64,000 nucleotides of DNA from an uncultured Chloroflexia bacterium (GCA_963810725.1 CAWEOO010000003.1:135314-199313); one strand, 5' to 3'. Positions 1,507 through 61,908 are shown, counted from the first letter of the stretch. Notes: generated by a model not told the origin, from the sequence alone. Made by a program: numbers and translations.

Positions 1507-4500
1507 TCAGCGGATCGTCAGTTCGCGCCGCGGCGTGATCGCTGCGCGGTTCGGACCGCTGCGTGACTCGACGATGGCGGATTCCCACCGGTACGTGCCC
1601 ACGGTGATCACCCTGGCGACATAGCGCAGCCAGACCGTCCCTTCGTTCGGGCTCCTCATGGCGCAGAAGGTCACGCGTTGAGCGGCCTGCTCCTCGGGAT
1701 AGGTGCGATCTCGCTGGCGCTCGCCCGTCTCCGGATCCATCCAGTCCTCGAGGACCCCCACCGGGACGAGGCCGGACGGCACCATATCCGTCACGCGATG
1801 GCAGCCGATCGCAGCCTGCGGACCGAACGAGACCTTGAAGTCCACGGCCACGAGGTCACGCGCTCGAACGGTCCCGGCGGGGCTGACCCGGCGCTCGATG
1901 GTGACATCCGGGTCCTTCTCGAGGGTCGTGGCGTCCACGGGTTCGCGCCAACTCGTCGTCACGCCGACCGCACCTTCGACGGGCTCGATGGACACGTTCG
2001 CCAGCTGACGCCTTCGTGAGACTGACGCGGAAATCCTCGCCCGGTCCGAGCTCCACGACCCGACGCTCGCCGTCGGACACGTACGCGAAGCTGGCGGACG
2101 CGGCGGGCCGATGCTCCAGCGTCCAGCGGCTGTACCCCACGCTGTGCAACTCGTGCGGTGCCTCGACGCTCGGGTTCGCCTCCACATACGCCTGGTATCG
2201 CGACGCGACCGGGTCGCCCGTCGAAGCCATGAGCATCGCCATGAGCCCCGTGGCCGCGGTGATATCCGCGGCATCGTCGCCGACACGCAGCCGCGCGTGA
2301 CCGTCGACCGCCTCGCCGAACTCGTCGACGAGCGAGGTGATGACCGACCTGGCGGTGGTGGCATCACCCAGGCTAGCGGCGCCCAGACCGGCCATGAGCC
2401 GCTCGCGGACGGTCAACTCCGGGTCGGCGACCGCTGCCCGGATCCTCCGGGAGCACGGGTGCGCCCACACCCGCGAGGCCTGCGAGCGCGTAGATGCGCC
2501 GCTCCCGCGTCGCCTTGGCGTCCTCGGCGACCGCCCGGAAGAAGCTGGTCAGTCGCCATGGGTCGAACCGGTCGGGCGCCACGACCGCCGCGAGCGCAGA
2601 CACTTCGAGATCGCTGCTCGCATAGGGCAGGATCGCGATCCCACCGTCGTCGGTCTGGTACTGGTCCGCGTCGAACGTCGGGGAGTCCGCTTCCTTGCCA
2701 GCGGACGGGAATCGCTGCGCCATCAGCGTCCTGGCGAGGTCCGCCGCGAGGGCTCGCTCAAGGCGGGCGCTCCCGCCAGCGGCAAGCTCCACTAGGCGCG
2801 GGAGTTCCTGCCCGGCCCCCGCATCCGAAACGATGATCTCCGTCATGCCTTCGCCGCCTTCGATGACCGTCGGGCCGGACACCGCCACATAACTCGTCCG
2901 GGTTCGCGTCAGGCGCGACGGCACGACCGCGAAGGAGCGCGTCAGGCGATCGGTCTGCTTCGAGGCGCCGCTTCCCGTCGTGGCCGTGATCGTGATCGAA
3001 TGCGTGCCCAGCTTGAGATCCGGCAAGGGGACGGTCACCGCCTTGAATGCGTCGGCCCGCAGGCCGGATGCGTGGAGCCCCAGGCTCTCGGCGTCGACCG
3101 CAAAGGTCACCCGGTCGTCAGCGTCGAGGGCGGTGCCGAACCCTCGGATCTGGATGGCCGGTCGATCCGCCAGGAGATACTCGGGTGCGATCGCGGCGTC
3201 GATGAAGAAGGGTAGCCCGACCGGGATGAGGGTCGATCCCCCGCCCGCTTCCAGGCCGGCCCCGATGGCCGATGCACCCACGCGCCACGAAGTCAGGTCA
3301 TCCGACAGTCGGAAGGTCACCGACGCACGCCCGTCGGCACCGGTCTCCACGGCCTGGAACAGGACGGTGTCCCGGAACTCGTCGTCACCGCCGCCTCCGC
3401 CGGTGTCGCCGCCTTCGCCACGGTTGCCTGGCCCTCGATGCGAGAGGTACGTCGCCCGGATGCCGGCATCCACCGAGGCGTATAGCTCACGGAGCGGATC
3501 GTCGACGCTGGCGGCGCCGATTTCGAAGAGCTTCTCGTCGACGGCGCGCAGGACGACCGTGGCAGGAATGGGGTCCCCCGTTGCGTTACGCGTCCGGACG
3601 GCGAGGGTCACCTCGTCGCGGGGAGCGTAGCGGGCCTTGTCCGGCTGCACGTCCACGGTGATCGCTCGGTCCGAGGAGCGGAAGCGCGCCTGGAACCGGC
3701 CGGCATCCACGTACCCCGTGCCCGTGAACCGGACCGCGCCGATCTCGACGTTCGGCGGTCCCCATGATGGGAAATCGGTCACGAACCGCGCCGATCTCGC
3801 CACCGTGACGTCCCGGAGGCCGCGCTGGGCCACGTAGAACAGGCGCCGGTCGTCTTCGGGGGTGCCGCTGGCCCCAGGCTCTCGCATCGTCAGGTCGACC
3901 TCGTCGCCGATCCCGAACTCGGTCGGATCGTCCTGATCGGCGCTCAGTCCGAGGAAGGCTGACGCGTGCGGCTCGCCGAAGTCGTGTTCGACGCTCGCGT
4001 GGGTCGTCCGCCTGGCGACGTGGCCGTCGGGATCCGAGAGCGTGAGTTGGACCCGGTAATCGTGGCCCTTGCCGGACGCCGGGATGGACCCGCTGAACCG
4101 GCCGCGATCGTCCGTGCTGATCCGGATCGTCCCGGCGGCCCGCTCCCGCTGCTCGTACTCGTACAAGGGGACGACGCGCTTCTCGATGAAGTCGTACGTC
4201 GTGCCGACCTGCCTGCGCACCGGGATGATCTCGGTGAACCTGGCTGTCACGGTCCGGCTCCTGACCGGCGCACCGCGTGGGTCGAGGTCCCAGATCGAGG
4301 CGCCCGCAGCCAGCTCGCGCTCCAAACGGTCGCGATCGACGACGTTGACGGCGCCCGACATCCTGACCCGGCCGCCGCGGATCTCCGAGTCCGCGGTGAC
4401 GGTCCACATGCTCGGGAACACCATGAAATCGTGACTCGCGCCGTTGATCTCCCCCTCCTCGGCTCGAGCGGGTCGTACGGACACCGTCTGGTGCTCGGGA

Positions 4501-5957
4501 TCCTGCAAGTCCTGGTCATCTGACAGGCGGGCCGTCTTCCGGATGGTGGCGGACCCGGACGCGTTGGTCGTCGCGCTTCCTTCGACGAGCCCATCCATCC
4601 GCAGCGGGACGCCGGGGACCGGGGTGCCCTCGAAGAAGCTGGCCGTCGCCGTGACCCGGATCCGATCGCCGACGATGTAGATGCGGCGACCCGTGGCGAC
4701 ATCCAGTCGGTAGGCGGGTTTGAGGATCCGCCCGACCTGGACATGGCGTCGGGTGACCACCGCACCATCGATGACGAGCTCGAGCCGATAACTGCCCTCC
4801 GGGACGTCACGCAGCGCAAGGGACCCGGTGAACGCCCCGGTCGGCCTCGTTGCCCCCGTGATCTGGGCAATGGGGGCGATCGCCCCGTCGGATCCGTCGG
4901 CCGAGCTGAGTCGGATCGTGACGCTTGCGGGGACTTCGCCGGTATCGCGATCGCGGACGACGCCCCAGGCGTTGATCGCGTCCGTCGGTCGATAGCGGTC
5001 GCGATCGCTATGGAGGAGCTGCCAGAACCGTGGGTGTCCTTCGAACCCGGGCCAGAAGCTATCGATGCCGAAGCCCCCATCGGGGGTTCGCGCACCGGTC
5101 GCCGGGACGAAGGCCGATCGCCGGCCATCGCCGATGACGACCACCGGCTCGCAATCCTTCAGACACGCTCGACCTTGGTCCGCCTTGAGTGATGCCGGGG
5201 TGGCGGTCACGAGGGTGCCGTTCCCGCCGGTGCGGCCAAGCGACGCGCCATCCACGGACACGGTCGCATCGGCGATCGGGTCTCCCGTGGCGAGATCGTT
5301 GGCCCACACCAGGGTGTCGGTATCGGACACGAGCAGGTAGCTCGCGATATCCGTGACCTGCAGGATGGCCTGGGCCGGGTGCTTCTTCGATGGGTACTGC
5401 ACGAGATACCAGCCGGCCGGGAGGCGTTCCGGCAGGCGCGTCCACACCGTCCCCTGGTGATCCTCGACGTGCGCATCGAGCTTGACGACTCGGCGCAGGC
5501 CCTTGGTCGGGACCTGGGGGCCGGTGCTCCACTGGCTCCAGCTCGGGGTCGCGCGAAGGCGGCGGAACGATTCGATGGCCTTCGCCCGATCGGACAGCCG
5601 GTAGACCTCCAGCGGCACGCTGTCGATCTCGTCGCTACCGTCCCAGTCGAACGCCCAAAGCGAGATGATCGGCCGGTCGGCGGTCGCCGAATTCGAACAG
5701 GTCGTTCGCGAACCGGAAGGTCGTCTCGCGCGGGGCCGCATCGTTCGCGGGCGCGGTTTCGAACTGGAATCGGACATCCTCCTCGAGGATCTCGCCGGTC
5801 GCGGCGACCTGCACGCCACGACGCACCGTGACGGTGTAGATCCTGGCCGGGGACAGGCGCTTCGCCGGAACGAACGCGAGGACGCGACCGTGCACCTCGA
5901 AGCGGCCTTCGATCTTGGGCTCGATCGACACGTGTGCCGCGGCGTCGACCACGCCAT
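1507..5957 (-). CDS. Alpha-2-macroglobulin family protein with MG/Ig-like repeats, roughly 1500 aa or more. It is split into three frames: 2373..5957, 1856..2470 and 1507..2367.
   Basis: It contains A2M-type motifs (FRDTVLFQAVETGADGRASVTFRLSDDLTSWRVGASAIGA ... LPFF). Protein-like sequence continues in shifted frames near 2400 and 2000. There is no signal peptide at the frame start. Real coding begins around 5657, where the upstream anti-sigma frame stops. Confidence 0.7.
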
Positions 5958-6834
5958 CCTGGTCGAAGGTGATCTCGATGCCCGTGTCGCGCGGCACGCC
6001 CGTTACCTCGTTGCCGGGGACCGTCGAGATGACCCGCAAGGGCTGCCGTGCCTGGAAGGCCCAGGAATCGAGGGTCTGTCCGTCCGAGCCAGCCAGCGTG
6101 AAGCGGTACACCGCGCCCGGCGTCAGCGGCTCGACCGGGGTGAGGCGGACGCGGCCGTCCGCTTCAGGCGTCGCGGTCAGGGTCAGCGGCGGCTGAACGC
6201 TGACCCGTTCGGCAAGCTCGGCCGGCGATGTCCCGTCGAGGCTGCCAAGGAGGAAGCTGTTCTCGAGCTCGATCATGCCGTCGCGGGCGTGCTCGGCCGT
6301 CAGCTCGGCCACGGGATCCCACCTGGTGGCGAGCACGTCGTTCGGGACGCCCGTGGGGCCTGGCCCTCCCGGGTCACCCGAATTCGGCGGCGCCGAACTG
6401 CCTGGCCCCGCCGAAGGGGCGCCCGATGGATCGACGACGGCGATCCCGCCGTCGGAGGGGATGGCGCGCCAGGCGAGCGTCCCGCCCACGACCGCGACGA
6501 TGACCGCGGCCGCGGCGACGAGAGCCGCCCGGTCACGGAATTGATCGGGCAGCCGGAGCACCGTCGACCGCGCTGGAACCGGGGACGGGAACGGGGCGCG
6601 TCCGCTCACATCTGGCCTCGCGGCGGCACCGACGATCCGAGCGCGCAGGTCGCTGGGTGCGTCTTCGCGGCCGAGTTCGACCAGGGCGACGGCATCAGTG
6701 CGTAGGCCTTCGTCGATGGCCCGGCATTCGCCGCACGATGCGAGATGGGCCGTGAGGGTTTCGGCGTCCGCCAGCGACAGCTCGAAGTCGACGGTGCTGG
6801 CGGCGAGCTCGAGGGCGCGTTCGTGATCGTTCAT
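5635..6834 (-). CDS. Zinc-finger anti-sigma factor with a transmembrane segment and an Ig-like (SbsA/Big-like) extracytoplasmic domain. It probably runs on into the A2M ORF.
   Basis: The N-terminus reads MNDHERALE..HLASCGEC, a zinc-finger anti-sigma (ZAS)-type motif. A hydrophobic helix is followed by a Pro/Gly linker. Its ATG overlaps the sigma-factor stop as ATGA at 6831-6834. The C-terminal 300 bp overlaps the giant ORF in another frame. Confidence 0.7.
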   Translation of the reverse strand: MNDHERALELAASTVDFELSLADAETLTAHLASCGECRAIDEGLRTDAVALVELGREDAPSDLRARIVGAAARPDVSGRAPFPSPVPARSTVLRLPDQFRDRAALVAAAAVIVAVVGGTLAWRAIPSDGGIAVVDPSGAPSAGPGSSAPPNSGDPGGPGPTGVPNDVLATRWDPVAELTAEHARDGMIELENSFLLGSLDGTSPAELAERVSVQPPLTLTATPEADGRVRLTPVEPLTPGAVYRFTLAGSDGQTLDSWAFQARQPLRVISTVPGNEVTGVPRDTGIEITFDQDGVVDAAAHVSIEPKIEGRFEVHGRVLAFVPAKRLSPARIYTVTVRRGVQVAATGEILEEDVRFQFETAPANDAAPRETTFRFANDLFEFGDRRPADHLALGVRLGR

Positions 6835-7406
6835 GGCAGGGCCTGCATCGAGCCGAGCCGCTCGCGGAGCTGGAGCCGAGTACGGCACATCAGGGCCCTC
6901 GTCGCGATCGCGCTGCGGCCGATGGCCTCGGCGATCTCGAGCCCGTTGAAACCATTCGCGGCCATGAGGAGGGCGGTCCGCGCATCCGGTCCGATCTCGG
7001 CGAGGACGGCGTCGATGTCCTGCTTACGCTCGTGCTCGAGGAATTCCGGCTCGGGGCCGGCCTCGACCCCGCGGGCCACCAGCGCACCGAGCTGCTTCTG
7101 CGCCACGGCGGCGCGTCGTGCCCGTGAGACGACGAGATTCGCGATCACGCGGTACAGCCAGGCGCGGATGTTCGTCGGCTCGCGCCCCGCGTCGATCTCG
7201 ACGATCAGGCGGACGAACGCCTCGTGGACGAGGTCTTCTGCCGCTTCGCGGTCTCGGCTGGAGCGGAGCGCGAAGCTGAACAGTTCCCGCTGATGCGCGT
7301 CGTAGAGCGCGGCGACCAGGTCCCCGGTCTGCCCGGCGGCATCGACGCCGGCACTCCCGAGGACGTGCAGGTCATCCATCGTCACGAGGGCCATGCTGTG
7401 GCTCAC
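6831..7406 (-). CDS. ECF (sigma-70 family) RNA polymerase sigma factor.
   Basis: It has sigma region 2 and region 4 motifs (DLVHEAFVRL ... LEIAEAIGRSAIATRALMCRTRLQLR). It is coupled to the downstream anti-sigma by a stop/start overlap. Confidence 0.85.
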   Translation of the reverse strand: MSHSMALVTMDDLHVLGSAGVDAAGQTGDLVAALYDAHQRELFSFALRSSRDREAAEDLVHEAFVRLIVEIDAGREPTNIRAWLYRVIANLVVSRARRAAVAQKQLGALVARGVEAGPEPEFLEHERKQDIDAVLAEIGPDARTALLMAANGFNGLEIAEAIGRSAIATRALMCRTRLQLRERLGSMQALP

Positions 7407-8939: not shown

Positions 8940-10397
8940 TCAGCCGTGACGCGGCTCCTTGCGCGACCGCCGCCCGGGCCCGGCGTCCGGGCAGGAGCAG
9001 CGACGATGCGGCCACGCCGATGGCGACGACCGCCAGGATGCCGAACCCGGTCGAGATGCCGGCCGGGGTGACCGTTCCGCCCAGCACCGCGCCCGCCAGC
9101 GTGGCGCCGAGCGCCCCGCCGATGTATCGCCCGGTGATATAGGTTCCCGCCGCCATCCCGACCCGCTCCGGACTCGATCATCTCGAGCGCCGCCGTCTGC
9201 CGCGGCGAGCCCGCCATCCCCATCCCGAACCCGACGAGGGCCAGCAGGAGGCCGAGCGCCAGCGTGGACGACTCCGGTGCGACCAGCCAGAGCGCGGCGA
9301 GCCCCACGACGCTCGGCGACCGTGCCGATGACCGCCGGCTGACGACGCCCGACGACGTCCGACCGTCGGCCGCCGATCGGCGCCGCGATGGCGCCAAGGG
9401 CCGAGATGCCGAGCAGCACGAAGCCGCTCGTCTGGGCATCGCCGCCCTGGAGCCGCTCGACGAGGAGCGGCACGAGCACGAGCGTGGCATGGAGGATCAC
9501 CGTGGTCGCCGAAGACGCCGACCACCGCCGCCGCGAACGAGCGCGAGGCGAAGAGCCGCGGATCGACGGCGGGGTGCTCCGTTCGTAGCTCGACGAGGAC
9601 GAACAGGAGCGAGGAGGACGGCGCCGCGAGGATCGCCGCGATCTCCGGCCCGCCGCCCTCCAGCCCGCGAAGGCCGAGCAAGCAGCGAGACGAGGAACGC
9701 CGCGAGGACGCCCAGGCCGGGCAGGTCGATCGGGCGCGGCACGACCGGTCGCTGCGGTCGCGGCTCCGACTGGCCGGGGCCGGACGACCGCTCCGACCGC
9801 GACCGCGGCAAAGATCGCGACCGGCACGGCGACCACGAACAACGATCGCCAGCCCAGGCCCGCGACCAGCAAGCCACCGATGAACGGCCCGACCGCCGCG
9901 CTCGTCGAGACGAGCATGTCGAAGAGCCCGAACGCCGACCCGCGCCGATCCGGCGGCGCCATCGAGCGAAGCAACGCGACCGAGCTCGTGGACACGAACG
10001 CCCCGCTCACCGCCTGGAAGACCCGCGCCAGCGCGAGGACCTCGAAGGAGGTGGCCGTGGCCGCAAGCGCGGACGCAAGCGCGAACGCCGCAACGCCGAG
10101 GAGGAAGAGCCGCCGGTGACCGAACCGATCGCCAAGGCTGCCGCTCGCCGGCAACGCGATCGCGACCGCGCCCAGGTACAGCGTCACGAGCGAGGCGACG
10201 GTGGCCGCGCCAACGTCGAATTCGTCCATCACGCTCGGCAGGGCGACCGCGAGCATCGTCGAGTTGAGCGGGACCAGGATCGCCCCCGAGGCGAGGCCGA
10301 GCATGGCGCCGGTCATCAGGCGGCTCGGGCCTCCGGCCGGAGTCGTGGCCGGCTCGCCCGCTTCGTCCTCGGCCGCCGCCGCGGCCTCCTCGCTCAC
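8940..10397 (-). CDS. MFS transporter of the DHA2/EmrB-like drug:H+ antiporter family, interrupted by at least four frameshifts.
   Basis: MFS motifs (LVPLNSTMLAVALPSVMDEF ... LLFVLVELRTEHPAVDPRLFASRSF ... C-terminal helices) are spread over four ORF-track frames: 8940..11930, 9497..9877, 9178..9681 and 8810..9490. The GTG start overlaps the upstream stop as GTGA at about 10394-10397. Confidence 0.6.
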   Translation of the reverse strand: MSEEAAAAAEDEAGEPATTPAGGPSRLMTGAMLGLASGAILVPLNSTMLAVALPSVMDEFDVGAATVASLVTLYLGAVAIALPASGSLGDRFGHRRLFLLGVAAFALASALAATATSFEVLALARVFQAVSGAFVSTSSVALLRSMAPPDRRGSAFGLFDMLVSTSAAVGPFIGGLLVAGLGWRSLFVVAVPVAIFAAVAVGAVVRPRPVGAATAATGRAAPDRPARPGRPRGVPRLAACSAFAGWRAAGRRSRRSSRRRPPRSCSSSSSYERSTPPSIRGSSPRARSRRRWSASSATTVILHATLVLVPLLVERLQGGDAQTSGFVLLGISALGAIAAPIGGRRSDVVGRRQPAVIGTVAERRGARRALAGRTGVVHAGARPPAGPRRVRDGDGGLAAADGGARDDRVRSGSGWRREPISPGDTSAGRSAPRWRARCWAERSPRPASRPGSASWRSSPSAWPHRRCSCPDAGPGRRSRKEPRHG

Positions 10398-11930
10398 GAC
10401 AGTCGAACGAAGCCGGTCGTCCCGTCCAGCTCGAGCATCTGCCCGTCGGCGATCCGCGTCGTCGCGTCGCCAGTGCCGACCACCGCCGGCAGGGCGAACT
10501 CGCGGGCGACGACCGCCGCGTGGCAGAGTACGCCGCCAGTGTTGGTCACGAGCCCGCCGGCGATCGTGAACAGGGGCACCCACGATGGGTTCGACGACGG
10601 CGCGACGATGATGTCGCCCGGGCCGGACGCGCTCGAAGTCCTCGGGGCCTAGCACGACCCGAGCAGGGCCGCTGGCGATCCCGGCCGAGGCGCCGGTGCC
10701 GCGCACGATCGCATCGTCTTCCTTGGCGAACCGCTCCCCGCCGAAGCGCCCGGACGGGCTCGGCGTCGGTCGGCTTCCCGATCTTGGACGGCGGGGTGAC
10801 GGCCCGCCAGTGCTCATGCTCGGCCCTCCGCTCCGCGACGATGTCGCGACGGTCCTGCGGGCGAGCGAAGGAGCCCCGGCACCTCGGCCCGGCGCAGGTA
10901 CAGCACGTCGTGCGGTCGCTCGATGACGCCCATCGCGGGCGAGCCGGGCACCCACGCGCATCACGAAGGTCCGCAGGCGCGCCTGGGCCATCCGGTCGAT
11001 CCAGTAGTTGTGGGTCTCCGTGATCGGGCCGATCTTGCGGGCCAGGCCAAGCAGTCGTTCGAATTCGGCGAGCCGCTCCGGTTGGTCGGCGAGCCGGTCG
11101 CGGACGCCCTCGGCCAAGGTCTCGGCCTCGCCGGCGAGGCGGGCGGCGCGCTCCGTGGCCGGTTCGACGGCCCGTTCGAGCCGCTTGCCGACTTCGGCGA
11201 GGAGCATCGCCGGTTCCTCGCCCCAGGACGCGAGCGCGAGGTCGTCGAACCCCTGGCCGAGGTGCCCGTGCTCCTCGAGGAAGCGACGCAGCTCCGACAC
11301 GAACGCGTCCGCCGCCCGGGAGCGTCGCCAGCGCCTCGAGGGAAGGTGCCGGTCGCGCCGCGACCGCTGCGGCGAGCTCCGGCGATGCGCCCGCCAGCTC
11401 GGTCGAGGCGCCCAAGGCCGGCGTCCACGCCCACCAACTCGTGGATCGTGCCCTGGATCAGCTTGAGGGCCTCGCCGGGATGCGGCTTCTCGATGACCGA
11501 CTCGTACAGGTCGGCGAGGTCGTCCATGACCTGGTACGGGCCGGTGATCGCGTAGAAATGGATGGCCCAGGCGCGCTGGGCCCGTTCCCACGCCAGCTCC
11601 CAGGCCTCGACCAGCTGCTCGGCCGGCAGCTCCTCGACCTCGATCGCGGCGATCTCGGCGTACAGCCGCTGCAGCTCGGGAACGGCGCGCTCCCAGTAAT
11701 CGACCGCGAGCGGCGTGTGCTGGCGGCAAGGCGGCCATGTACTGCTCGACGACCGCCTCGTGCTCCGACTCCGGACCGAGCGGCATCCACGAGAGGTACC
11801 AATAGCCGTTGACGATCAGGGCCCGCATGCTGATCGGCACGTCGAGCCGCTCGTAGCGGTAACCGAACCCGTTCCCGATGAGCGCCACGTAGTCCTGCGA
11901 GAGCGGCACGAGATAGAACGGCGAGTGCAT
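10394..11930 (-). CDS. PEP-utilising enzyme family protein with a phosphohistidine swivel domain, interrupted by at least three frameshifts.
   Basis: The protein reads GTGASAGIASGPARVVLGPEDFERVRPG and then, in another frame, PLFTIAGGLVTNTGGVLCHAAVVAREFALPAVVG. The N-terminal part is split across three frames (11930-11730, 11527-11400, 11315-10925). Confidence 0.55.
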
Positions 11931-12157
11931 CTCGTCACGACGCCACGAGCGCTCGACATCGCTCGGGTCCGACCACGCGATCGGGAAGTCCTCGGGAGCT
12001 GGACGCGTTCATGCTCGGACTCGTGCTCCTCTCGGGCTCGGACCGGAAGAGTCGCGACAGTCTAGCAACGGGGCGTCCGCGTGCGGCATGCCGCGTGTCC
12101 CTGTGCGCCGGCGCATGATGGGCGCAGCAGGGCCAGAGCTACGAGGAAACGAACGAG

Positions 12158-30701: not shown

Positions 30702-30705
30702 GTCC

Positions 30706-45265: not shown

Positions 45266-45314
45266 CCGGGCGCGTCTGGCATACTCCGCGCGCAGGATCC
45301 CCACAGGAGCGAGC

Positions 45315-47135: not shown

Positions 47136-47166
47136 GGACACTCGAGGTCCTCGACCCCCAAGCGAC

Positions 47167-47192: not shown

Positions 47193-47215
47193 GTTATGTC
47201 TGCGTCGGTCGTCGG

Positions 47216-48286: not shown

Positions 48287-49010
48287 CGGCGTAGGTCGTG
48301 ATCGGGCGTCCGACCAGCGGCGCCTCGCCGAGCTTCACGGTGTTTCGGACGATGCTGGTGAAGACGTGATGATCGCCGACCACGCGCAGCTCATCGAGCA
48401 TGTCGCGAGCGAGGTTGGTGCGGCCGTCGTAGAACGTGGGCAACAGCCCGAGGATGCGCAGGTCGCGGTTGAGCTTGAGCCGGATCGCGTTGATGACCTT
48501 GACGAGGTTGGTCAGGCCCTTCATCGCGTAGTACTGGGTCTGGACCGGGATGATCACGCCGTTGGCGGCCACGAGGCCATTGACGGTCAGCAGCCCGAGG
48601 TTCGGGGGACAGTCGATGAGGACGTAGTCGTAGTCGTCGGTCTGCCCGTCGATGGCGTCGCGCAGGATCTGCTCGCGCCCGAGAGCGGTGAACAGCTCCC
48701 CCTCGGTCGAGGCGAGGTCGATGTGCGCCGGAGCGACGTCGATGCCCGCGCTTTCGGTCGCGCGAATCACTTCGGCGAGCGTCGATCGTCCGTCGGCGAG
48801 CACGTCGGCCATCGAGCGTTCGACGGTATTGAGGTTGATCCCGAGTCCAGCCGTGAGGTTGGCCTGGGGGTCCATGTCGATGCAGAGGATGCGCAGGCCT
48901 TCCTCGGCGAGGGCCCCGGCGAGGTTGATCGCCGTCGTCGTCTTCCCGACGCCGCCCTTCTGGTTGGCGATCGCGATCACATTGGTCACCAGGACATCAC
49001 CTCGAATCAT
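48219..49010 (-). CDS. parA: ParA/Soj partitioning ATPase.
   Basis: It has a deviant Walker A motif ([18 protein letters not shown]). Confidence 0.9.
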
Positions 49011-49096
49011 CGACCGGGCTCGGCGTGCCGTGCAGAGCGGCTGGGGGCGGGGATGTGGTCATGCTACCGCAGCCCACCCGCTTGCGGACAGGCTGG

Positions 49097-49139
49097 TTAT
49101 CCACACGGATCGAGAGTTGTTCACCATTTCGGTGGATAA
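49097..49139. promoter_or_regulatory. Inverted pair of DnaA-box-like sites in the parA/pccB divergent intergenic region.
   Basis: TTATCCACA lies at about 49097-49105 and its inverse, GGTGGATAA (TTATCCACC on the other strand), at about 49131-49139. The segment between them is of relatively low GC. Confidence 0.35.
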
Positions 49140-49149
49140 CTGGGACCGT

Positions 49150-52853: not shown

Positions 52854-54547
52854 CCCCGCCACACGACCGGCCGCCGCGCCCGGTGGGGGAGGGCAAGGAC
52901 CCGGCCCGGGAACGGTGGCGCCAGACGCTCCGGGCCAAGGCCGCGGAGGCTGCGCCGGAACGGCGCGCCCGCTTCGAGACTTCGTCCGGCCTCGAGATCC
53001 GCGACCTGTACACCGCCGCCGATCTGGCCGGGATGGACGAGAATCGCGATCTCGGCCGCCCAGGCGAGTACCCATTCGCGCGCGGCGTCCAGCCGACCAT
53101 GTACCGCAGCCGCTTTTGGACGATGCGTCAGTACGCCGGGTTCGCGACGGCCGAGGAGACGAACCGCCGCTTCCGCTACCTCCTGGACCACGGCCAGACC
53201 GGCCTGTCGGTCGCGTTCGACCTCCCGACCCAGATGGGCTACGACTCCGACGCCCCGGCGGCAGAGGGCGAGGTCGGCCGGGTCGGGGTGCCCATCAGCA
53301 GCCTGGCCGACATGGCGGTGCTGGTCGACGGCCTGCCCCTGGGCGAGGTCAGCACCTCGATGACGATCAACGCGACCGCACCCATCCTGCTCGCGCTGTA
53401 CGTGGCGGCCGCCGAGGCCCAGGGCGTGGCTCGCGAGCGGATCTCGGGCACGACCCAGAACGACATCCTCAAGGAGTACATCGCCCGGGGGACCTACATC
53501 TTTCCGCCGCGCCCGTCGATGCGCCTCGTGACCGACGTCTTCGAGTTCTGCGCCCGCGAGCTGCCTCGCTGGAACACGATCTCCATCAGCGGCTACCACA
53601 TGCGCGAGGCCGGGGCGACAGCCGCTCAGGAGCTCGCGTTCACCCTGGCCGACGCCATCGCCTACGTCGAGGCGGCCGTTGACCGAGGGCTCGACGTCGA
53701 CGACTTCGCCGGGCGCCTGTCCTTCTTCTTCGCGGCCTGGTCGGAGCTGTTCGAGGAGGTCGCCAAGTTCCGGGTGGCCCGCCGCATGTGGGCGACGATC
53801 ATGCGCGAGCGGTTCGGGGCGACGAACCCCAAGTCGCTGCTGTGCCGGTTCCACGTCCAGACCGCCGGGTCCAGCCTGACCGCCCAGTCGATCGACAACA
53901 ACGTGGTGCGCACCACGGTCCAGGCGCTGGCCGCGATCCTGGGCGGAGCGCAAAGCCTGCACACGAACTCCCGCGACGAGGCGCTCGCTCTCCCGACCGA
54001 GGAGGCCGCCCGGCTGGCCCTGCGAACGCAGCAGATCCTGGCCTACGAGGCGGGGGTGACCGAGACGCCCGATCCCCTGGCCGGCTCCTATTACGTGGAG
54101 AGCCTTACGAACGAGCTCGAGGCCGCCGCCTGGGCCTACCTCGATGAGATCGAGTCGTTGGGTGGGACGCTCGCGGCCATCGAGCGCGGCTTCCAGCAGC
54201 GCGAGATCCAGGAGGCGGCCTACCGCGTCCAGCGTGCGGTCGACAGCGGCGACCAGGTCGTCGTCGGCGTGAACAAGTTCCGCGACGACGAGGTCGCCAC
54301 GCCACCGACCCAGCGGATCGATCCAGAAGGGGAGCGCCGCCAGATCGAACGCGTCCGGAAGGTCCGGGCGGAGCGTTCCGCCGAGGCGTGGGGCTCGGCC
54401 ATGGACGAGCTCGAGCGGGTCGCGCTGGCGGACGGCAATCTGATGCCGGCGATCCTCGCGGCGGTCCGTGTCTACGCCACGGTCGGGGAGATCAGCGACC
54501 GGCTTCGGGTGACATGGGGCGAGCACCGCGAACTCATCACGGTCTGA
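52850..54547 (+). CDS. mcm: Methylmalonyl-CoA mutase family catalytic (large) subunit of 565 aa with no fused B12-binding domain.
   Basis: It has MCM substrate-binding barrel motifs ([25 protein letters not shown]...[20 protein letters not shown]). It stops where a fused enzyme would begin the cobalamin-binding domain. Confidence 0.88.
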
Positions 54548-55085
54548 CCCCGAACGGGATCCGCCAGCGCGGCCGCCACCGACCCGCCGCGTCCTGGCAC
54601 CACAGCTCGAGGCGCTGGGCTCGGCGGACGAATGGCGCGACGCGGGCGGCGGCGTCTTCGATGGCCCCGAGCGGCGCGACCTCGGACTCGACCAGCGTCA
54701 GGTGCGGGATGACGGTCTCGAAGGTCCCGCCGTAGGGCGGGTGGTCCGGCCAGCGCTCGGCGACCGCCGCGGTCAGCGCCGCGAACGGTTCGGCGGGCTC
54801 TGGTTCGATCCAGACGAGGTCCGCGAAGCGGCGCACCCGCTCGAAGCGGACGTTGCATGCCGGTACGCTCGCGGCGACGGCGGCGAGCGTCGCGCGGTCG
54901 GCCGAGCCGAGCGACTCGCATGGCAGAAAGGGGTACAGGATCGTGACATGCGGCCCGGCGCCAGCGAGGGCCGCCCGGTCCCAGCGTCGGCGAAGGTCGT
55001 CCAGGGCCGGCGGCACGGCGAACGGCACCACCAGCCCGCTGGCCACGGGCCATGGGATCGACCCGGGAACATCCGTCTCCGGCAT
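54537..55085 (-). CDS. 2H phosphoesterase superfamily protein, 2'-5' RNA ligase (LigT)-like.
   Basis: It has two H-x-T/S-x motifs (HVTILYPF ... HLTLVESE). It corresponds to the C-terminal part of the composite 580-aa ORF. Confidence 0.6.
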
Positions 55086-55203
55086 CGACGACAGGGTACG
55101 CTCCGTCCGTGAGGAATCGACCGATGGACGACGGGGCTCGCGCGACGATCCGCGTTGCGGCCATCGCCGTGCCCGGCTGGCGCACGTTCCCGGGGACCAG
55201 GCC

Positions 55204-55671
55204 GTGAGCGCGGGTCGGCCACTCCCGCTCCGCATCCGGTCGCTCGGCAAGATCCACCATGTCGCGCTGATCGTCGCCTCGATCGAGGCGGCGCTGGGGC
55301 TGTGGCGGGACCAGCTGGGCCTCGAGGTCGAGACGATCATGGACATCGAGCACGACCGCGTGCGCATCGCGTTCCTGTCCGTCGGGGAATCGAAGGTCGA
55401 ACTCGTCCAGCCCACGGACGACACCACCGGTGTCGCGCGGTTCCTCGCCTCGAAGGGGGAGGGGTTCCACCACGTGTGCTTCGAGGTGCCCAACCTGACC
55501 GAGACGCTGCTGCGCCTGGAGATGGATGGCCTCGAACTCATCGACACCGCACCCCGGCGGGGGGCGGAGGGGCCGGTCGCGTTCATCCACCCGCGCTCGT
55601 GCCACGGTGTCCTGGTCGAGCTCATCGAGGCGCCCGGCGGGCCGGGCTGGACGGCGCTCGGGTTCGCCTGA
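55204..55671 (+). CDS. mce: Methylmalonyl-CoA epimerase (VOC/glyoxalase fold).
   Basis: The protein reads KIHHVALIV...HHVCFEV...[14 protein letters not shown], the metal-binding residue pattern of this family. Confidence 0.85.
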
Positions 55672-55727
55672 GCTATCCTCGGGCGGCACCCAACACCGAC
55701 ACCGCAACTCGACCTGGAGGAGCCCCG

Positions 55728-56048
55728 ATGATCGTTTCCACGACCCCGACCCTCGAAGGACGCCCGATCGCCGAATACAAGGGCCTGGTGACCGGCGAGG
55801 CGATCCTTGGCGCGAACATCTTCAAGGACCTGTTCGCCGGGATCCGCGACATCGTCGGCGGGCGCTCCGGCGCGTACGAGCAGGAGCTCAACAAGGCCCG
55901 CACCATCGCGGTCGAGGAGATGACGGCCGCAGCGTCTGCGCTGGGCGCCGACGCGATCGTGGGCGTGGACCTCGATTACGAGACCGTCGGCCAGGGCGGC
56001 TCGATGCTCATGGTCACCGCGTCCGGCACGGCCGTTAAGCTCGGGTAA
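55728..56048 (+). CDS. YbjQ/UPF0145 family protein.
   Basis: The protein reads [57 protein letters not shown] Shine-Dalgarno is present. Confidence 0.8.
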
Positions 56049-56086
56049 CCCCGCGCCGCGGCGTCCTCCGTACTCGGGGCTGAAAC

Positions 56087-56353
56087 TCAGTCGCGGAACG
56101 CGCGCGAGTTCTTTGTCCGCTCTTCCTTCGAGGGCTTCGGCTCGCGTCCGGGTCGCGGCGGTCGCGGCGCCGTGCCGGGAGCCATCGGAGGCGGGGGCTC
56201 GACCGGCCCGCGCGCTCGGGCCGCTGCGACCGCGGTCGTGAAGGCCTTGGCGGCATCGGGTGCGAGGCTGCCCAGCCATGCGGCCTCGATCTCCTTGACC
56301 CGGATCGTCTCGGCGGCTCGTCGTTCGCGCTCGGCGCGAGAGTGCTTGGTCAT
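56087..56353 (-). CDS. Small basic, Pro-rich hypothetical protein of 88 aa.
   Basis: It is an ORF with GC3 bias lying within the larger composite ORF 56087..57334. Confidence 0.4.
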   Translation of the reverse strand: MTKHSRAERERRAAETIRVKEIEAAWLGSLAPDAAKAFTTAVAAARARGPVEPPPPMAPGTAPRPPRPGREPKPSKEERTKNSRAFRD

Positions 56354-56436
56354 CGTCGGTCCTCGATCATTCGTGGGTGCCGGACGGGCGGAGGTCTTCC
56401 GTCCGTGGAAAGCTCGAACGGGAAGTGTACGCCCGT

Positions 56437-57282
56437 TCAGCCCGCCGCCGGCTTCGTCGCGCGCAGGGAGAACGCCAGCGGCAGCTCTCCGGCCCCGGGC
56501 GGCAGCACGAAGCGGCCAGTCCCCGGCGCGCTCTCCACGAGGAAGTCGGTGGCCCACTCGAGGTACGAGAGCTCCTCGAGCGACTCGATCCGCAGTCCGG
56601 CGTCGATGAGGGCGGTGACGACCTCGCCGAGGCCGTGGTCCCAGCCATGCTCCTTCTGCTCCCCGACATCGGCATCGGGGTTCGCGTAGGAACCCTTCAC
56701 GTCGAACACGAGCGGATCGCGGTGTTCCCAGTACGGATAGAGCGGCCGCAGCTCCCCGGGCGCGACGCCGTCGGTCTCGAACACCTGCAGGACCGGATGG
56801 GCCTCGGTGATGAAGAACGTCCCGCCGGGCGCCAGGAAGTGCGCCACGACCCGAGCCCAGCCGCGGATGTCCGGTAGCCAGCCGAGCACTCCGCGCGAGG
56901 TATAGACGACTTCGAACTCGCCCGCGAGATGTTCGGGCAGGTCGTACAGGTTTGATTCGACGAAGCGGGCGTCCTCGATCCCGATGTCGGCCGCGAGCTC
57001 GCGCGCGAGACGGATAGCCGCCGGCGAGAAATCGGCGCCCGTCACCCGCGCCCCGAGCCGAGCCCACGACAGCGTGTCGATACCGAAGTGGCACTGGAGA
57101 TGCAGGAGCGTCTTGCCGCGGACGTCGCCGACCGCGGCGATCTCGTCGTCCCGGAGGCGCACGCCTCCGGCGCGGAATCCATCGAGGTCGTAGAAGTCGC
57201 CCTCCGCGTGGACCGCCGTCCAGGCATCCCAGAGCCGCCGGTTCGCCTCGTACGAGTCGGCGTGGTCGCCCTGGGCAGTCAC
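56437..57282 (-). CDS. Class I SAM-dependent methyltransferase.
   Basis: It has a SAM-binding motif I region (LLHLQCHFGIDTLSWARLGARVTGADFS). Its GTG start overlaps the upstream stop as GTGA. Confidence 0.8.
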   Translation of the reverse strand: MTAQGDHADSYEANRRLWDAWTAVHAEGDFYDLDGFRAGGVRLRDDEIAAVGDVRGKTLLHLQCHFGIDTLSWARLGARVTGADFSPAAIRLARELAADIGIEDARFVESNLYDLPEHLAGEFEVVYTSRGVLGWLPDIRGWARVVAHFLAPGGTFFITEAHPVLQVFETDGVAPGELRPLYPYWEHRDPLVFDVKGSYANPDADVGEQKEHGWDHGLGEVVTALIDAGLRIESLEELSYLEWATDFLVESAPGTGRFVLPPGAGELPLAFSLRATKPAAG

Positions 57283-57785
57283 CCGGCCGACTCAGCCGCC
57301 TCGGCCGCCGGGCTCGCCACGCGCTCGTCGGCAAAGTTGAACATGTCCAGCTCGCCTGGCGAGTGCCCGGCGGCGGTCAGGAGCACAGCCGCCTCGGAGC
57401 GATGCTGGGTGCCATGGTTCACGACGTGCGCCAGCATCTGCCAGACGGCGATCGCCCCGTGGACGTACGCGAGCATCGCATCGTCGATGCCTTCCAGGAA
57501 CGCGTCGAAGTCGACCCACTCCCGCTCCCAACGTTCGCGGAGCTCGGCAAGCGACGGCAGCGGCTCGTCTTCGGGAGCCGGCGGCTCTCCCGGCGACTGC
57601 GAGATGCCGTGGCGCCAGCGCTGGTGCGCGCCGAGCTGGTGGACGAGGATCCCGCCAAGCCCGCGTTCGTCGATCACGTTCTCCGCGGACCAGGTGGCGT
57701 CATCGATGCCAACGGCCGCATCGAGGACCCGCTGGGTGCTCCAGCGGTCGTAGTCGAACAGGAAGCGAATCTCGGACTGCTGCAA
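57279..57785 (-). CDS. DinB/YfiT-like (DinB_2) metal-dependent hydrolase family protein.
   Basis: It has conserved His motifs (LVHQLGAHQRWRH ... HVVNHGTQHRSEA). The TTG start is preceded by an AAGGAGGA Shine-Dalgarno. Confidence 0.65.
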   Translation of the reverse strand: MQQSEIRFLFDYDRWSTQRVLDAAVGIDDATWSAENVIDERGLGGILVHQLGAHQRWRHGISQSPGEPPAPEDEPLPSLAELRERWEREWVDFDAFLEGIDDAMLAYVHGAIAVWQMLAHVVNHGTQHRSEAAVLLTAAGHSPGELDMFNFADERVASPAAEAAESAG

Positions 57786-57798
57786 CGGTCCTCCTTGG

Positions 57799-58683
57799 TC
57801 AGCCGCGGTAGCCGGCGTCGCGCAGGAGAGCCGGCAACTCGGTCGGGGAGCCGGCGACACGGAAACCCGCCGCCTCGAGTGCCTCGACCTTGGATGCCGC
57901 GGTCCCCGCGCCACCGCTGATGATCGCCCCGGCGTGGCCCATGCGCTTGCCCTCCGGGGCGGTCCGCCCGGCGATGAACGCGACCTTGGGGACGTCGCGC
58001 AGGTGCTCCCCGGCCCAGGCCGCGGCCACCTCCTCGGCTGCGCCCCCGATCTCGCCGATGAGCACGATCGCGTCCGTCTCGTCGTCCGCCGCGAACAGTT
58101 GCAGCACGTCGAGGAAGGTCGTGCCGATGATCGGGTCGCCACCGATCCCGACGCACGTCGACTGGCCGAGCCCAGCATCCGTCATCGCCTGGACGGCTTC
58201 GTAGGTGAGGGTGCCCGACCGGCTCACGACGCCGACCCGGCCCTCGCGATGGATGGCGCCGGGGATGATCCCGACCTTGGCCCGGCCGGGCGAGGTCGCC
58301 CCTGGGCAGTTGGGGCCGATGAGGCGGGCGCCATGCGCCCGTACGACCTCGACGGCCGGGATCATGTCGAGCGCCGGGATCCCCTCGGTGATGCAGAAGA
58401 TCGTGGCGATACCGCTGTTCGCCGCCTCCATGATCGCGTCCGGCGCTCCGGCGGCCGGGACGAAGATCAGGGACGTGTTGGCTCCGGTCTCGCGGACGGC
58501 CTCGGCGACGGTGTCGAAGACGGGGACCGCACCATCGAGGGCGGTCTGGCCGCCCTTGCCCGGGGTCACGCCCGCGACGACCTTCGTGCCGTAGTCGCGA
58601 GACGCACCCGCGTGGAACCCGCCCTCGCGCCCGGTGATGCCCTGCACGACGAGGAGGGTCTCGCGGCCGACGAGGATGCTCAT
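57799..58683 (-). CDS. sucD: Succinyl-CoA synthetase alpha subunit.
   Basis: It has the CoA-binding motif and the phosphohistidine loop (GHAGAII). Confidence 0.92.
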
Positions 58684-59861
58684 GCGGGGGTCCCGGCGCG
58701 ACGGGACGCCTCGACCGCCTTGGCCGCCGCCTCATCCAGCGAGGAGGCGGTCTGGAACTGCGCTTCCTCGAGCAGGGTGGCGGCTTCGGCCGCGTTGGTC
58801 CCCACGATCCGGACGACCATCGGCACGTCCCGGGTCTGCTGGGCGCGCGCCTCGATCAGGCCGCGGGCCACCTCGTCGCCGCGGGTGATGCCACCGAAGA
58901 TGTTGACGAGGATCGCATTGACCTTCGGGTCGGTCAGGATGAGGCGCATCGCCGCCGCGACCTTGTCCGCCCGGGCGCCGCCGCCGATGTCGAGGAAGTT
59001 CGCCGGTTCACCGCCAGCCCGCTTGACGAGATCCATCGTCGCCATGGCCAAACCAGCGCCGTTGACCATGCAGCCGATCGTGCCGTCGAGCTTGATGAAC
59101 GTCAGGCCGGCCTCGCGGGCCTCCTTGTCCTCGGGCGCTTCCTCGTCGGGATCGCGCAGGTCTTCAAGGCCGGGATGCCGATCCAGGGCGGAGTCGTCGA
59201 GGGTCACCTTGGCATCGAGACAGACGAGTCGCTCGATGGCGGCCCCGTTGGCATCCGTCTCCCGGACGATCGCCAGCGGATTGATCTCGACGAGATCGGC
59301 GTCGTATGCCTTCATCGTGGTCACCAGCCCCTTGGCGATCACGACGGCCGCTTTCAGGTGGGCGCCCAGGCCCATCGCAAAAGCCAGCTCGCGCGCCTGG
59401 AAATCCTGGAGGCCCAGGAGCGGGTGGGCGTGCCGGCGGATGATCGCGCCGGGGTTCGATGCGGCGACCTGCTCGATCTCGACGCCGCCCTCCGCGGAGC
59501 CCATCAGGAGGATCCCCCGCTCCGCGCGGTCGAGGACGGCCGCGAGGTAGAACTCCTTGACGATGTCGGCGGCCGGCCCGATGAGGACCTTCCTCACGGT
59601 CATGCCCTTGATGTCCATGCCGAGGATCGCCTCGGCCACCGTCTCCGCCTCGTCCGGCGAGCCCGCGAGCTTCACGCCGCCCGCCTTGCCCCGCCCACCG
59701 ACCAGGACCTGGGCCTTGATGACGACCTTGTCGGCGCCGTCGGCGAGGAGCCGTTCTGCCGCGATGCGTGCCTCGGCTGCGGTGTGGGCGACCGCCCAGG
59801 CTGGGACCGGCAGGCCCTGGGCGACGAGCAGCCCTTTGGCGTCGGCTTCGTGCAGTTTCAC
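58680..59861 (-). CDS. sucC: Succinyl-CoA synthetase beta subunit.
   Basis: It has an ATP-grasp N-terminus ([19 protein letters not shown]) and its stop overlaps the sucD start. The start is a GTG. Confidence 0.9.
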
Positions 59862-60069
59862 GCGCGGCAGGCTCCGGTGGCGGGGGAGGTGTCGGGGACC
59901 GCGATGGTACCGCGTCGGCCCCGCCACGACTGCGCCACGAGCCGTCCGTGACCAGACGCCGGCCCGATCCGTGGCCCCTCGCCGGCCGAATTCGGAACGG
60001 AACGGGGATGCGGCCTCGCCATACTGATTGAGCGTGGCCAGATGGGTCGCGCCACCGCCGAGGGGCGTG

Positions 60070-60627
60070 ATGCAGCGAGACCTCGTGGAGCGAGCGCGGA
60101 AGGGCGATCATGACGCCTTCGCCGAGCTGGCAGGCGCCGCGATCTCCCGACTGGACGCGGCCGCCTGGCTCATCCTCCGCGATCCCGATCAGGCCAAGGA
60201 CGCCGTGCAGAACACGCTCGTCCGGGCCTGGCGCGACCTGCCGACGCTGCGGGATCCGGACCTCTTCGACGCCTGGGTCCATCGGATGCTCGTCAACGCC
60301 TGCATCGATGAGGCCCGACGGCTTCGGCGCCATCGCGTCGATGTCGAGCTCACGAACCTTCACGCGCCCGCCGTCGCCGGCATCGAGTCGGCCGTCGCGG
60401 ATCGCGACCAGATCGAGCGCGGGTTCCTGCGCCTCGAGCCGGACGCGCGGGCGCTCATCGTCTTGCACCACTACTTCGACCTGCCGTTGCCGGAGGTCGC
60501 CACGACGCTAGGGATCCCGCTCGGGACGGCGAAGTCTCGCCTGCACCGAGCGCTCCAGGTCATGCGGGCGGCGCTCGACGCCGATGCCCGCTACCGACCG
60601 GAAGCCACGGAGGGTCGTCTGGCATGA
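60070..60627 (+). CDS. ECF sigma factor.
   Basis: It has region 2/4 motifs (DAVQNTLVRAWRD...LPLPEVATTLGIPLGTAKSRLHRAL). Confidence 0.85.
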   Translation: MQRDLVERARKGDHDAFAELAGAAISRLDAAAWLILRDPDQAKDAVQNTLVRAWRDLPTLRDPDLFDAWVHRMLVNACIDEARRLRRHRVDVELTNLHAPAVAGIESAVADRDQIERGFLRLEPDARALIVLHHYFDLPLPEVATTLGIPLGTAKSRLHRALQVMRAALDADARYRPEATEGRLA

Positions 60628-61908
60628 CGACGAACGACGTCTTCGGACGCAACCTCTCCACCTGGCTTCACGAGGACGCCGAGCACCACGTGCCCGACCA
60701 CCTCGCGGAGGTCCTGCAGCGGACCGCGGCGACCCGCCAGCGACCGGCATGGTCGAGCCTCGAAAGGTGGCTCCCCGTGGACACGACCCTCCGACCGCGC
60801 CTGATCATGCTGCCGCGCCACCGCCGACTCGTGCTCGTCGCGAGCCTGATCCTCATCCTGCGGCCTTGGCGACATCGCCGTCGGCTCCTATCGATCGCGA
60901 GTGCCCGAGCCGTTCGGGTTGGCGCGCAACGGCCTGATCGTCACCAGCCGCGATGGCGACCTCTACGTGATCGATCGGGCGACGACGCGAGCCCCAGCTG
61001 ATCGTGCGGCGGTACCGGCTTCGACTTCGGGCCGATCTTTTCGCGGGACGGGACGGAGGATGGTCTTCCTCCGCTCCGACGGGCCGTTGCCGTCGACGGG
61101 GCCCGCGATCCTGACGCTGGTCGTCGCCAACGCGGACGGCACACAGCCCAGGGCCCTGACGCCGCCGACCACGGCCCTGGACTGGTTCGATTGGTCGCCG
61201 GACGGGGCCTCGATCGCCTACATGTCAAGGGGAGGGCTCTACGTCGTCGACGTCGACGTCGACGCGGCGCAACCACGGCAGGTGAAGGACACCGGGACGA
61301 TGCACTTCCCGACGTGGCTGCCGCCCGACGGCAAGGACATCGTCTACCGGCTGGAAATCGGCGAGCCCCGGGATCTACGCCATCGCGGCCGATGGCACAG
61401 GCGAGCGACGCCTGCTGTCGACGACCCCTGCCAACAACGAATTCGACTACCAGGGGATCGCCGTCTCGCCGGACGGTTCGCACGTCACCTTCACGCGCTG
61501 GTCCGAAGCCGGCCTCCCGCGCGTCTACGCGCTGAACGTCGCGACCGGAAAGGACACCGTCTTCCCGATGTCGGAAGGGGTTGGTCAGCGCGGGACGGCG
61601 ACCTATTCTCCCGACGGAAGGCTGGTGGCCTATGCCCGGATCTTTGTAGTGGGGGCTTCCAGCTGGTCGTCGCCGATGCCGACGGGTCGGGCAACGAACG
61701 AACGATCGGTCAAAGGAAGCCCGGGCCGGCGGGCGGAACCGACGTGGACGCCTCGTGGGCATTCACCCCCGACGGCACCGCGCTGATGGTCCGCTACGGA
61801 GACGACGCCGCAGGCAGGACCCACCTCATGCCGATCGATGGATCGGCGCCGACCGACTTGGGTTCGGGCGAATTCGAGTTCGTGGACATCCAACGCCTCG
61901 CGCCCTGA
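60624..61908 (+). CDS. Anti-sigma factor with a TolB-like beta-propeller extracytoplasmic domain, carrying at least three frameshifts.
   Basis: The N-terminus and transmembrane helix are in ORF 60624..61001. The propeller runs through 60901..61908 and two other frames ([39 protein letters not shown] ... [13 protein letters not shown] ... [17 protein letters not shown]). The shift near 61650 sits on a G5 run and the one near 61375 on a C4G3 run. Confidence 0.55.

Follow-up and report, generated by a model that had tools for sequence, protein, structure and literature searches.

Blocks of frame disruptions in a 64-kb window of a Chloroflexia metagenome contig: probable long-read consensus errors rather than gene decay

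Introduction

The DNA considered here is a stretch of 64,000 nucleotides, referred to below as the window, from an uncultured Chloroflexia bacterium (GCA_963810725.1, CAWEOO010000003.1:135314-199313). Many of the genes in the window cannot be read in a single frame, being interrupted by frameshifts and, in places, by in-frame stop codons, and others are open throughout. A preliminary description of the window, made from the sequence alone, offered two explanations: that the organism is losing envelope, secreted and sensory functions through reductive evolution, or that the consensus is poor in particular regions of the assembly. The question raised by the locus is whether the frame disruptions arose in the cell or in the assembly. 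Comparison of the window with intact homologues and with related genomes leads us to conclude that the disruptions are very probably consensus errors of a long-read metagenome and not mutations of the organism.

Genomes and methods

The window has a GC content of approximately 70%. Ten of its proteins were found verbatim in a public protein collection, where all ten come from the same contig, 440,925 bp in length. When the intact DUF72 gene of the window (7608-8564) served as the query of a protein scan against species-representative genomes, 80 related loci were returned, all in metagenome-assembled genomes (MAGs) of the class Limnocylindria (Chloroflexota); amino-acid identity reaches 95-97% in the best of them, and Microflora Danica (MFD) MAGs account for about half of the 80. 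The MFD MAGs were built from Nanopore reads only, by Flye assembly followed by one round of Medaka, and Nanopore-associated errors in them were screened for by their own authors via coding density (PMC12313526). An MFD protein, P0074, is deposited at NCBI and ENA alike, as is the 440,925-bp contig. No short-read contig of the same strain was found, the closest homologue of the gene for the PEP-utilising enzyme being just 91% identical; on contig L081 the YbjQ protein is identical to that of the window, yet the DNA is 88% identical.

Reading frames were segmented by a codon-usage Viterbi procedure, in which frame switches within coding runs on the same strand were scored. Frame disruptions (events) were called by a purpose-written, frameshift-aware dynamic programme that aligns the proteins of intact homologues to the DNA. 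The references were L004, a short-read MAG that is syntenic with the window from the alpha-2-macroglobulin-like (A2M) gene to the propeller gene; L082, a 9.7-kb forest-soil scaffold that is colinear with the window at 8.9-16.9 kb and in which the SGNH, DGWP, CxxCxC, ThiS, propeller, PAS, PEP and MFS genes are all intact; and L083, which is colinear with the window at 56-64 kb. The TolB-like and BtrH-like genes were compared with database homologues.

Extent and distribution of the frame disruptions

Frameshift-aware alignment to intact homologues revealed at least 36 frame disruptions and two in-frame stop codons in eleven genes (Table 1). The preliminary description had counted at least 25 disruptions, a figure that is borne out and raised, and its gene-level claims were confirmed for ten of eleven genes, mostly with more events than were first counted. 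The remaining claim, of a capsid-like gene with two disruptions, did not hold, as position 27888 is the normal boundary between a gene of a 160-aa family and an intact HK97-type prohead protease gene. The events lie in blocks at 2.0-17.3 kb, 32.3-33.0 kb and 60.9-61.6 kb and are clustered beyond chance (index of dispersion 2.76 in 1-kb bins, p = 2.6e-12), the longest stretch without a verified event being 27.8 kb. The Viterbi segmentation showed repeated frame changes in the A2M gene, the MFS transporter gene, the PEP enzyme gene, the PAS-propeller genes, the genes at 14-16 kb and the TolB-like gene; in the same segmentation dnaG, sigA, the integrase gene, pccB, accA, mcm, sucCD, icd and the GGDEF-EAL gene were each found in one frame.

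The distribution of the events tracks position rather than function, the TolB-like gene excepted. Between 8.9 and 17.3 kb almost all genes are disrupted whatever their product, and between 37.8 and 60.6 kb none is. Indeed, the propeller gene passes from clean to dense mid-gene: its initial 630 nt are clean and are followed by five events within 360 nt (+1, -1, -1, +1, +1). The affected genes include cytosolic and clade-conserved ones, namely those for the PEP enzyme and the BtrH-like protein, the latter being conserved clade-wide (a cluster of 168 members), and among the products of the clean blocks are a PAS-GGDEF-EAL sensor, membrane proteins, three ECF sigma factors, a secreted protein, LemA and methyltransferases. 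Housekeeping genes had at first been described as clean and accessory genes as broken; the core genes are indeed clean, but the dichotomy was overstated, because the clean block also holds sensor, membrane and non-core genes and the conserved BtrH-like gene is disrupted. The TolB-like gene is hypervariable, with 43% identity to its counterpart in L083; the ECF sigma and icd genes that flank it are clean, at 89-90% identity.

Spectrum and sequence context of the lesions

The events have a marked direction. The net change is +1 in 31 of the 36 and -1 in the other five (binomial p = 1.3e-5), and all eight events in the PEP gene and all three in the A2M gene are +1. The lesions comprise 36 frameshifts of 1-2 nt and the two stop codons, rather than the mixed spectrum of a pseudogene, and alignment of the eleven disrupted genes to intact homologues showed no large deletions or truncations. 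Against L082, to which the amino-acid identity is 88-98%, approximately 2,400 aligned codons contain just four codon gaps. Single-base edits are enough to restore full-length proteins that are colinear with their intact homologues.

DNA alignment to L082 showed that the inserted base often lies outside any homopolymer, as in CGC[A]GGA, CCA[T]CAT and TCC[A]GCT, and that A or T makes up about half of the insertions, in sequence of 71% GC. Homopolymer slippage was rejected as the main cause, as only a minority of sites are run extensions, mostly of runs of 1-3 bases, and the spectra of run lengths are alike in the window, in the Nanopore loci and in the short-read loci. The earlier remark that some shifts sit on homopolymer runs accordingly applies to a minority of sites, most insertions being found outside runs. 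Poor coverage or polishing in the GC-richest parts was also rejected, the local GC content at the events being that of the background (z = 0.2-1.6). A methylation or motif hotspot fared no better: by eye, TCGA (at 5691, 9172, 14089 and 17456) and an inserted C before GACC seem to recur, but TCGA is found near four of 25 sites against a background of 15.5% (p = 0.55), and no 4-mer survives correction for multiple testing. At a few sites the sequence is suggestive of merged alleles at polymorphic positions, for example CG[C/A]GGACC read as CGCAGGACC at 10855.

The TAA at 17456-17458 occupies a conserved serine codon, TCG (GGCTCGAAGG in L003, L004 and L005), and TCG becomes TAA only if both adjacent bases are substituted (CG to AA), an unusual route to a nonsense codon in nature. 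At the TAG at 32699, homologue P0329 has tryptophan and P0330 has serine, and TAG is one substitution away from the implied codons.

Selection on the corrected genes

The frame-corrected genes of the window were codon-aligned with those of L082 and of six other relatives, and dN/dS was determined on the terminal branches. On the window branch it was 0.12-0.17 for the PEP gene, 0.16-0.22 for the MFS gene and 0.04-0.07 for the propeller gene. The intact sister L082 gave 0.12-0.15, 0.22-0.31 and 0.02-0.04, respectively, and the background of pairwise comparisons between relatives was similar. The window values thus match or are below those of L082 for the PEP and MFS genes and are slightly above them for the propeller gene, and in none of the three does dN/dS rise towards 1. 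A comparison of dN/dS with the orthologues of close relatives had been proposed in the preliminary description as a check on gene loss; now that it has been computed, it reveals no relaxed selection on the window lineage.

The same was found within the most densely disrupted part of the propeller gene. Codons 206-356, which hold five indels in about 450 nt, show three replacements and 22 synonymous differences from L082 (Nd = 3, Sd = 22), a rate that is the same as in the clean first half. Had five indels been fixed by long drift within 450 nt, many more replacements would be expected than the three that are seen. Because replacements are scarce and dN/dS is not raised, five to eight frameshifts per gene are irreconcilable with ordinary pseudogene decay.

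Comparison of sequencing platforms

As a platform control, the same Viterbi segmentation was applied to all of the fetched loci, and same-strand frame switches were counted unless they fell at a stop codon. These candidates number 5.8 per 10 kb in the window and 5.3 per 10 kb in 42 MFD Nanopore loci (873 kb), compared with 1.8 per 10 kb in 38 short-read loci (511 kb). The share of +1 steps is 68% in the Nanopore loci versus 36% in the short-read loci, where it represents the background of normal gene junctions. Homology-based calling gave 5.5, 3.8, 0 and 0.3 events per kb in four Nanopore loci (L033, L035, L029 and L066, respectively) and a mean of 0.18 events per kb in six short-read loci. 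The LigD gene carries 21 shifts in L033 and 15 in L035, with no stops, next to a DUF72 gene that is clean, and the same MFS and PEP genes as in the window show occasional +1 shifts at other sites in L003 and L001. The pattern of the window, including a riddled gene beside a clean one, is shared by other long-read MAGs of the clade and is not peculiar to this organism.

LigD is an ATP-dependent DNA ligase/phosphoesterase, encoded at 16094-18902 in L033 and at 16593-18377 in L035, both of which are species-representative MFD MAGs. Several of its shifts lie at shared reference positions (563, 759, 775, ~960 and ~994), though the two genes are 85.5% identical. Some may be natural indels, compensated relative to a reference that is 75% identical, and others may be recurrent errors.

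The disrupted and the clean genes

The coordinates of the disrupted genes and of the event-free blocks are collected in Table 1.

Table 1. Disrupted genes and event-free blocks of the window, with the positions of the events
Feature	Coordinates	Strand	Events and remarks
Anti-sigma (zf-HC2) N-terminus fused to alpha-2-macroglobulin-like body	1508..6835	-	Three +1 nt events: ~5691, 2447, 2008
MFS transporter	8947..10395	-	Five events, all net +1: 9752, 9682, 9507, 9314, 9172
PEP-utilising (phosphohistidine swivelling, Rph-like) enzyme	10397..12010	-	Eight single-base insertions: 12000, 11729, 11404, 11310, 10931, 10855, 10761, 10622
PAS-domain gene	12160..12656	+	Three small insertions at the 3' end: 12605, 12621, 12647
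BNR/Sortilin-type propeller	12670..13736	+	Five events: 13301, 13432, 13548, 13603, 13658
CxxCxC protein, 64 aa	14005..14195	-	One +1 (A to AA) at 14089; 97% identical to intact L082 gene
DGWP-repeat secreted protein, 527 aa	14306..15886	-	At least two events: 15159, 15029; 88% identical to intact L082 gene
SGNH/GDSL hydrolase	16015..16868	-	One +1 at 16078; 285/285 residues, 91% identity to L082, no codon gaps
BNR sialidase-like secreted protein	17151..18328	+	+1 at 17248; in-frame TAA at 17456-17458
Event-free block: dnaG, sigA, tyrosine integrase	19826..25413	+	Single frames
BtrH_N/DUF4872 (BtrH-like) protein	31752..33099	+	Two events (32347, 33027) and TAG at 32699
Event-free block	37809..60619	.	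Single frames
TolB/PD40-type propeller	60626..61905	+	Five to six events: 60861, ~60988-61007, 61056, 61357, 61647

When the fragments of the disrupted genes are stitched together, conserved proteins of full length are recovered. The stitched A2M protein matched the Pfam families Big_5, MG2, A2M_BRD and A2M; its counterpart in the short-read MAG L004 is a single open reading frame (ORF) of 1300 aa, and the alignment to it (1300/1300 residues, 82% identity, no codon gaps) shows a single +1 event, at 5691; two further +1 events were seen against the Nanopore MAG L021. The stitched MFS transporter covers positions 1-347 of the 347 of the Pfam MFS_1 profile across five junctions and is 88% identical to the intact 480-aa gene of L082, with no stops. 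The PEP enzyme aligns to the intact L082 protein over 536/536 residues (91% identity, no codon gaps and no stops), and the best 17 database homologues are all full-length, at 536-580 aa and 86-91% identity. With the three insertions near its 3' terminus (region 12605-12680), the PAS gene loses its stop codon and reads on in frame into the propeller gene as one PAS-propeller ORF; L082 has two genes here, 5 nt apart, for a PAS protein of 166 aa and a propeller of 356 aa. The propeller is 98.0% identical in amino acids to its intact L082 homologue, with 354/356 residues aligned and no codon gaps. Several small indels in the low-complexity N-terminus of the DGWP protein (15661-15735) are doubtful. 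The BtrH-like protein is 90-91% identical to intact 451-aa homologues over its full length, and its BtrH_N Pfam match extends across a frame junction. The TolB-like protein, the anti-sigma partner of the ECF sigma factor encoded at 60070-60627, is ~84% identical to intact 427-aa homologues, again over its full length.

Two further observations concern the PAS, PEP and MFS genes. In L082, a Pyr_redox_2 oxidoreductase gene (381 aa; 5157-6302) lies between the PAS and PEP genes and is without a counterpart at 12067-12160 in the window. An ATG-started frame of 996 aa runs over the MFS and PEP genes (8940-11930, minus strand), mostly out of phase with both. It was rejected as a gene, being a chance open frame of DNA with 73% GC, and could mislead gene callers.

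The larger event-free block (37809-60619) encodes the GGDEF-EAL protein, a phosphatase, LemA, membrane proteins, an acyltransferase, a prenyltransferase, ParAB, PccB, AccA, Mcm, a methyltransferase, SucCD and an ECF sigma factor; a frame wobble at 52234-52415 falls inside one open ORF of 702 aa. Alignment to homologues gave no events in the genes for an ECF sigma factor, ThiS, the methyltransferase, SucD, SucC, ECF60, Icd and a 269-aa protein, and the methyltransferase, SucD, SucC and ECF genes are likewise without events against L083. Residues 13-318 of the DUF72 protein align to those of relatives in one frame, and the secreted-protein gene at 1-1417 aligns without gaps to L005. The sole tRNA gene of the window, for tRNA-Asn (GTT; 35707-35781, plus strand), sits between a membrane-protein gene at 34.8-35.6 kb and minus-strand genes at 35.8-37.6 kb, where the long minus-strand ORFs 35818-37623 and 36471-37700 overlap and leave an ambiguous junction at ~36.25-36.5 kb.

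The anti-sigma/A2M junction

In the short-read MAGs L004 and L008 the zf-HC2 N-terminus and the A2M body form one ORF (…DLFES[GT/AV]ADRP…). The window has an extra T at ~5691 (GAA[T]TCGG), and L021 has an extra A at the same spot, at ~12809 (GAA[A]TCGG), in a protein that is only ~52% identical to the A2M protein of the window. A context-prone error is favoured because different bases are inserted at the same site in the window and in a Nanopore MAG, and the insertion is absent from the two short-read assemblies. The junction TTCGAA/TCGG may thus be a context-specific error hotspot, rather than a sign of shared ancestry or of a programmed shift, though this is a single coincidence.

The cassette itself consists of an ECF sigma gene followed by a single gene of ~1,770 aa that joins zf-HC2, a transmembrane segment and the A2M body (1508-7392 in the window; 10964-15444 in L004), the domains of the body being Big_5, MG2, a bait region, A2M and MG10. 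This 6-kb ECF/A2M cassette is found in the window, L004, L008 and L021 and is absent from L002, L003 and L005, in which the flanking genes are adjacent.

A putative integrated element

Directly downstream of sigA lies a putative integrated element of 7.25 kb (24174-31446), bracketed by a 17-bp exact direct repeat, TGGCAGCGGTTCTGGCA, at 24174 and 31423. Its genes encode a tyrosine integrase (24273-25418), an HTH_17 excisionase-like protein, a homologue of phage replication initiators, the protein of the 160-aa family and the HK97-type prohead protease, which is an intact protein of 182 aa (27888-28446). The replication-initiator homologue is truncated to its N-terminal third (profile positions 2-95 of 315), and there is no coding signal over 26466-26830 and 29435-30231. 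The element resembles the decayed remains of a prophage or satellite. A search of viral contigs with the protease region of the element gave no match.

Discussion

The signature of the events and the platform comparison support the second of the two explanations first offered, a regionally poor consensus. The 441-kb contig to which the window belongs, from a soil member of the Limnocylindria, would itself be a long-read MAG contig, probably assembled from Nanopore reads with Flye and Medaka, in which spurious single-base insertions would be confined to stretches where the consensus is poorly supported. The blocks would then reflect local drops in effective read support. A possible cause is that segments which vary between strains or species are covered by the MAG's own few reads alone or by a mixture of divergent reads, whereas conserved core genes would receive a better pile-up.

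Fixed frameshifts in a lineage that is losing its envelope, secreted, sensor and accessory functions, as in Mycobacterium leprae or recent host-restricted bacteria, could produce lesions grouped in certain genes with dnaG, sigA, pccB, accA, mcm, sucCD and icd intact, and such genuine pseudogenisation could also account for the two in-frame stops, for a TolB-like gene that alone is disrupted between clean neighbours, and for the accessory nature of the A2M/ECF and DGWP/SGNH genes, which are missing from some relatives. We nevertheless regard it as unlikely, and the reductive loss proposed in the preliminary description does not stand: the window branch has a dN/dS as low as that of its intact sister, individual genes hold 5-8 independent frameshifts with neither an excess of substitutions nor large deletions, stops make up just two of 38 lesions, and the genes are of full length once corrected. 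Natural bacterial indels show a deletion bias and occur in slippage contexts, the opposite of what is seen here, where 86% of the events are net +1, near-only single-base insertions are found and many of these lie outside homopolymers. Moreover, other Nanopore MAGs of the clade show the same pattern, which is far less pronounced in the short-read MAGs, and the sensor, membrane and accessory genes of the 23-kb clean block are intact. It is also unlikely that the lesions are a mixture, mostly consensus errors with a real minority made up of both nonsense codons and of the degraded genes within the element at 24.2-31.4 kb. The truncated replication-initiator gene and the non-coding stretches are typical of the decay of a cryptic element, and the TAG at 32699 is one substitution from a tryptophan or serine codon; the change of TCG to TAA at 17456 alters two bases of a conserved codon and is more readily explained as a miscall than as a mutation, and searches for homologues of the element genes gave none that could separate decay from error.

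Purifying selection persists in the disrupted genes, and their proteins are full-length when one base per site is skipped, as they would be if the extra bases were genuine and were bypassed by programmed +1 frameshifting or by correction of the transcript, the genes remaining functional; the +1 at the same A2M junction in the window and in L021 could be taken in the same sense. We give such recoding almost no credence. The sites share no slippery or stimulatory motif, no 4-mer being enriched at the 25 sites; up to eight sites per gene occur in unrelated contexts; the two same-site insertions differ in base; and L082, L004 and L008 lack the extra base in their orthologues. We know of no bacterial system that skips extra bases in such a way. 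Very unlikely, too, is the broader proposition that the extra bases are genuine, as recent single-base insertions in selected, still-constrained genes of a Limnocylindria lineage and some of its relatives. Were it true, there would have to be a targeted mutational process that generates insertions, or a correction at the level of expression that skips the extra base, and the same-site +1 at the anti-sigma/A2M junction of two divergent genomes would be a conserved recoding site.

Several points weigh against consensus error as the explanation. Both nonsense codons, and possibly some of the events, could be real. The block structure has no correlate in sequence composition, the density of the events being tied neither to local GC content, nor to any 4-mer (TCGA included), nor to homopolymer content, and one patch coincides with exactly one gene, the TolB-like gene between its clean neighbours, as gene-specific decay would. 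Consensus errors of Nanopore assemblies are usually dominated by deletions and are not biased towards insertions. Finally, the artefact is argued from sequence comparison, and the platform of the contig is itself inferred.

If the disruptions are consensus errors, they carry little weight for the biology of the organism, in which there is no evidence of function loss. Their weight lies in data quality. At least eleven genes are split in gene calls, their fragments entering the public collection as proteins in their own right (one is a 399-aa anti-sigma piece), and PAS and propeller are wrongly joined into one gene. Pseudogene censuses, pangenomes and completeness estimates that draw on high-GC long-read MAGs would be inflated by approximately 3-4 spurious frame breaks per 10 kb, arranged in blocks, and the same problem is seen in several species-representative MAGs of the clade.

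Among known systems, the closest likeness is to the indel errors of long-read (Nanopore or PacBio) assemblies that mimic pseudogenes: in both, the lesions are near-only indels with a bias in direction, are repaired by single-base edits and are accompanied by no relaxation of selection, and here they occur across the Nanopore-only MAGs of the clade, its short-read MAGs having far fewer. Classic errors of this kind are homopolymer deletions, whereas those of the window are mostly insertions and mostly outside long homopolymers, in a high-GC clade that is nearly without homopolymer runs of 7 or more; they also lie in sharp, kilobase-scale blocks instead of being spread uniformly over the contig. 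Mass pseudogenisation in reductive evolution, known for example from Mycobacterium leprae, Sodalis and Shigella, likewise leaves many broken non-core genes beside intact housekeeping genes, but the window has no raised dN/dS, no large deletions or insertion sequence (IS) insertions, hardly any nonsense codons and a bias towards insertions, and its lesions are absent from short-read relatives. In programmed ribosomal frameshifting, known from prfB, dnaX and IS elements, a +1 offset similarly parts two halves of a coding sequence; unlike such systems, the window has many sites per gene and no conserved slippery sequence, and its sites are not conserved in short-read orthologues.

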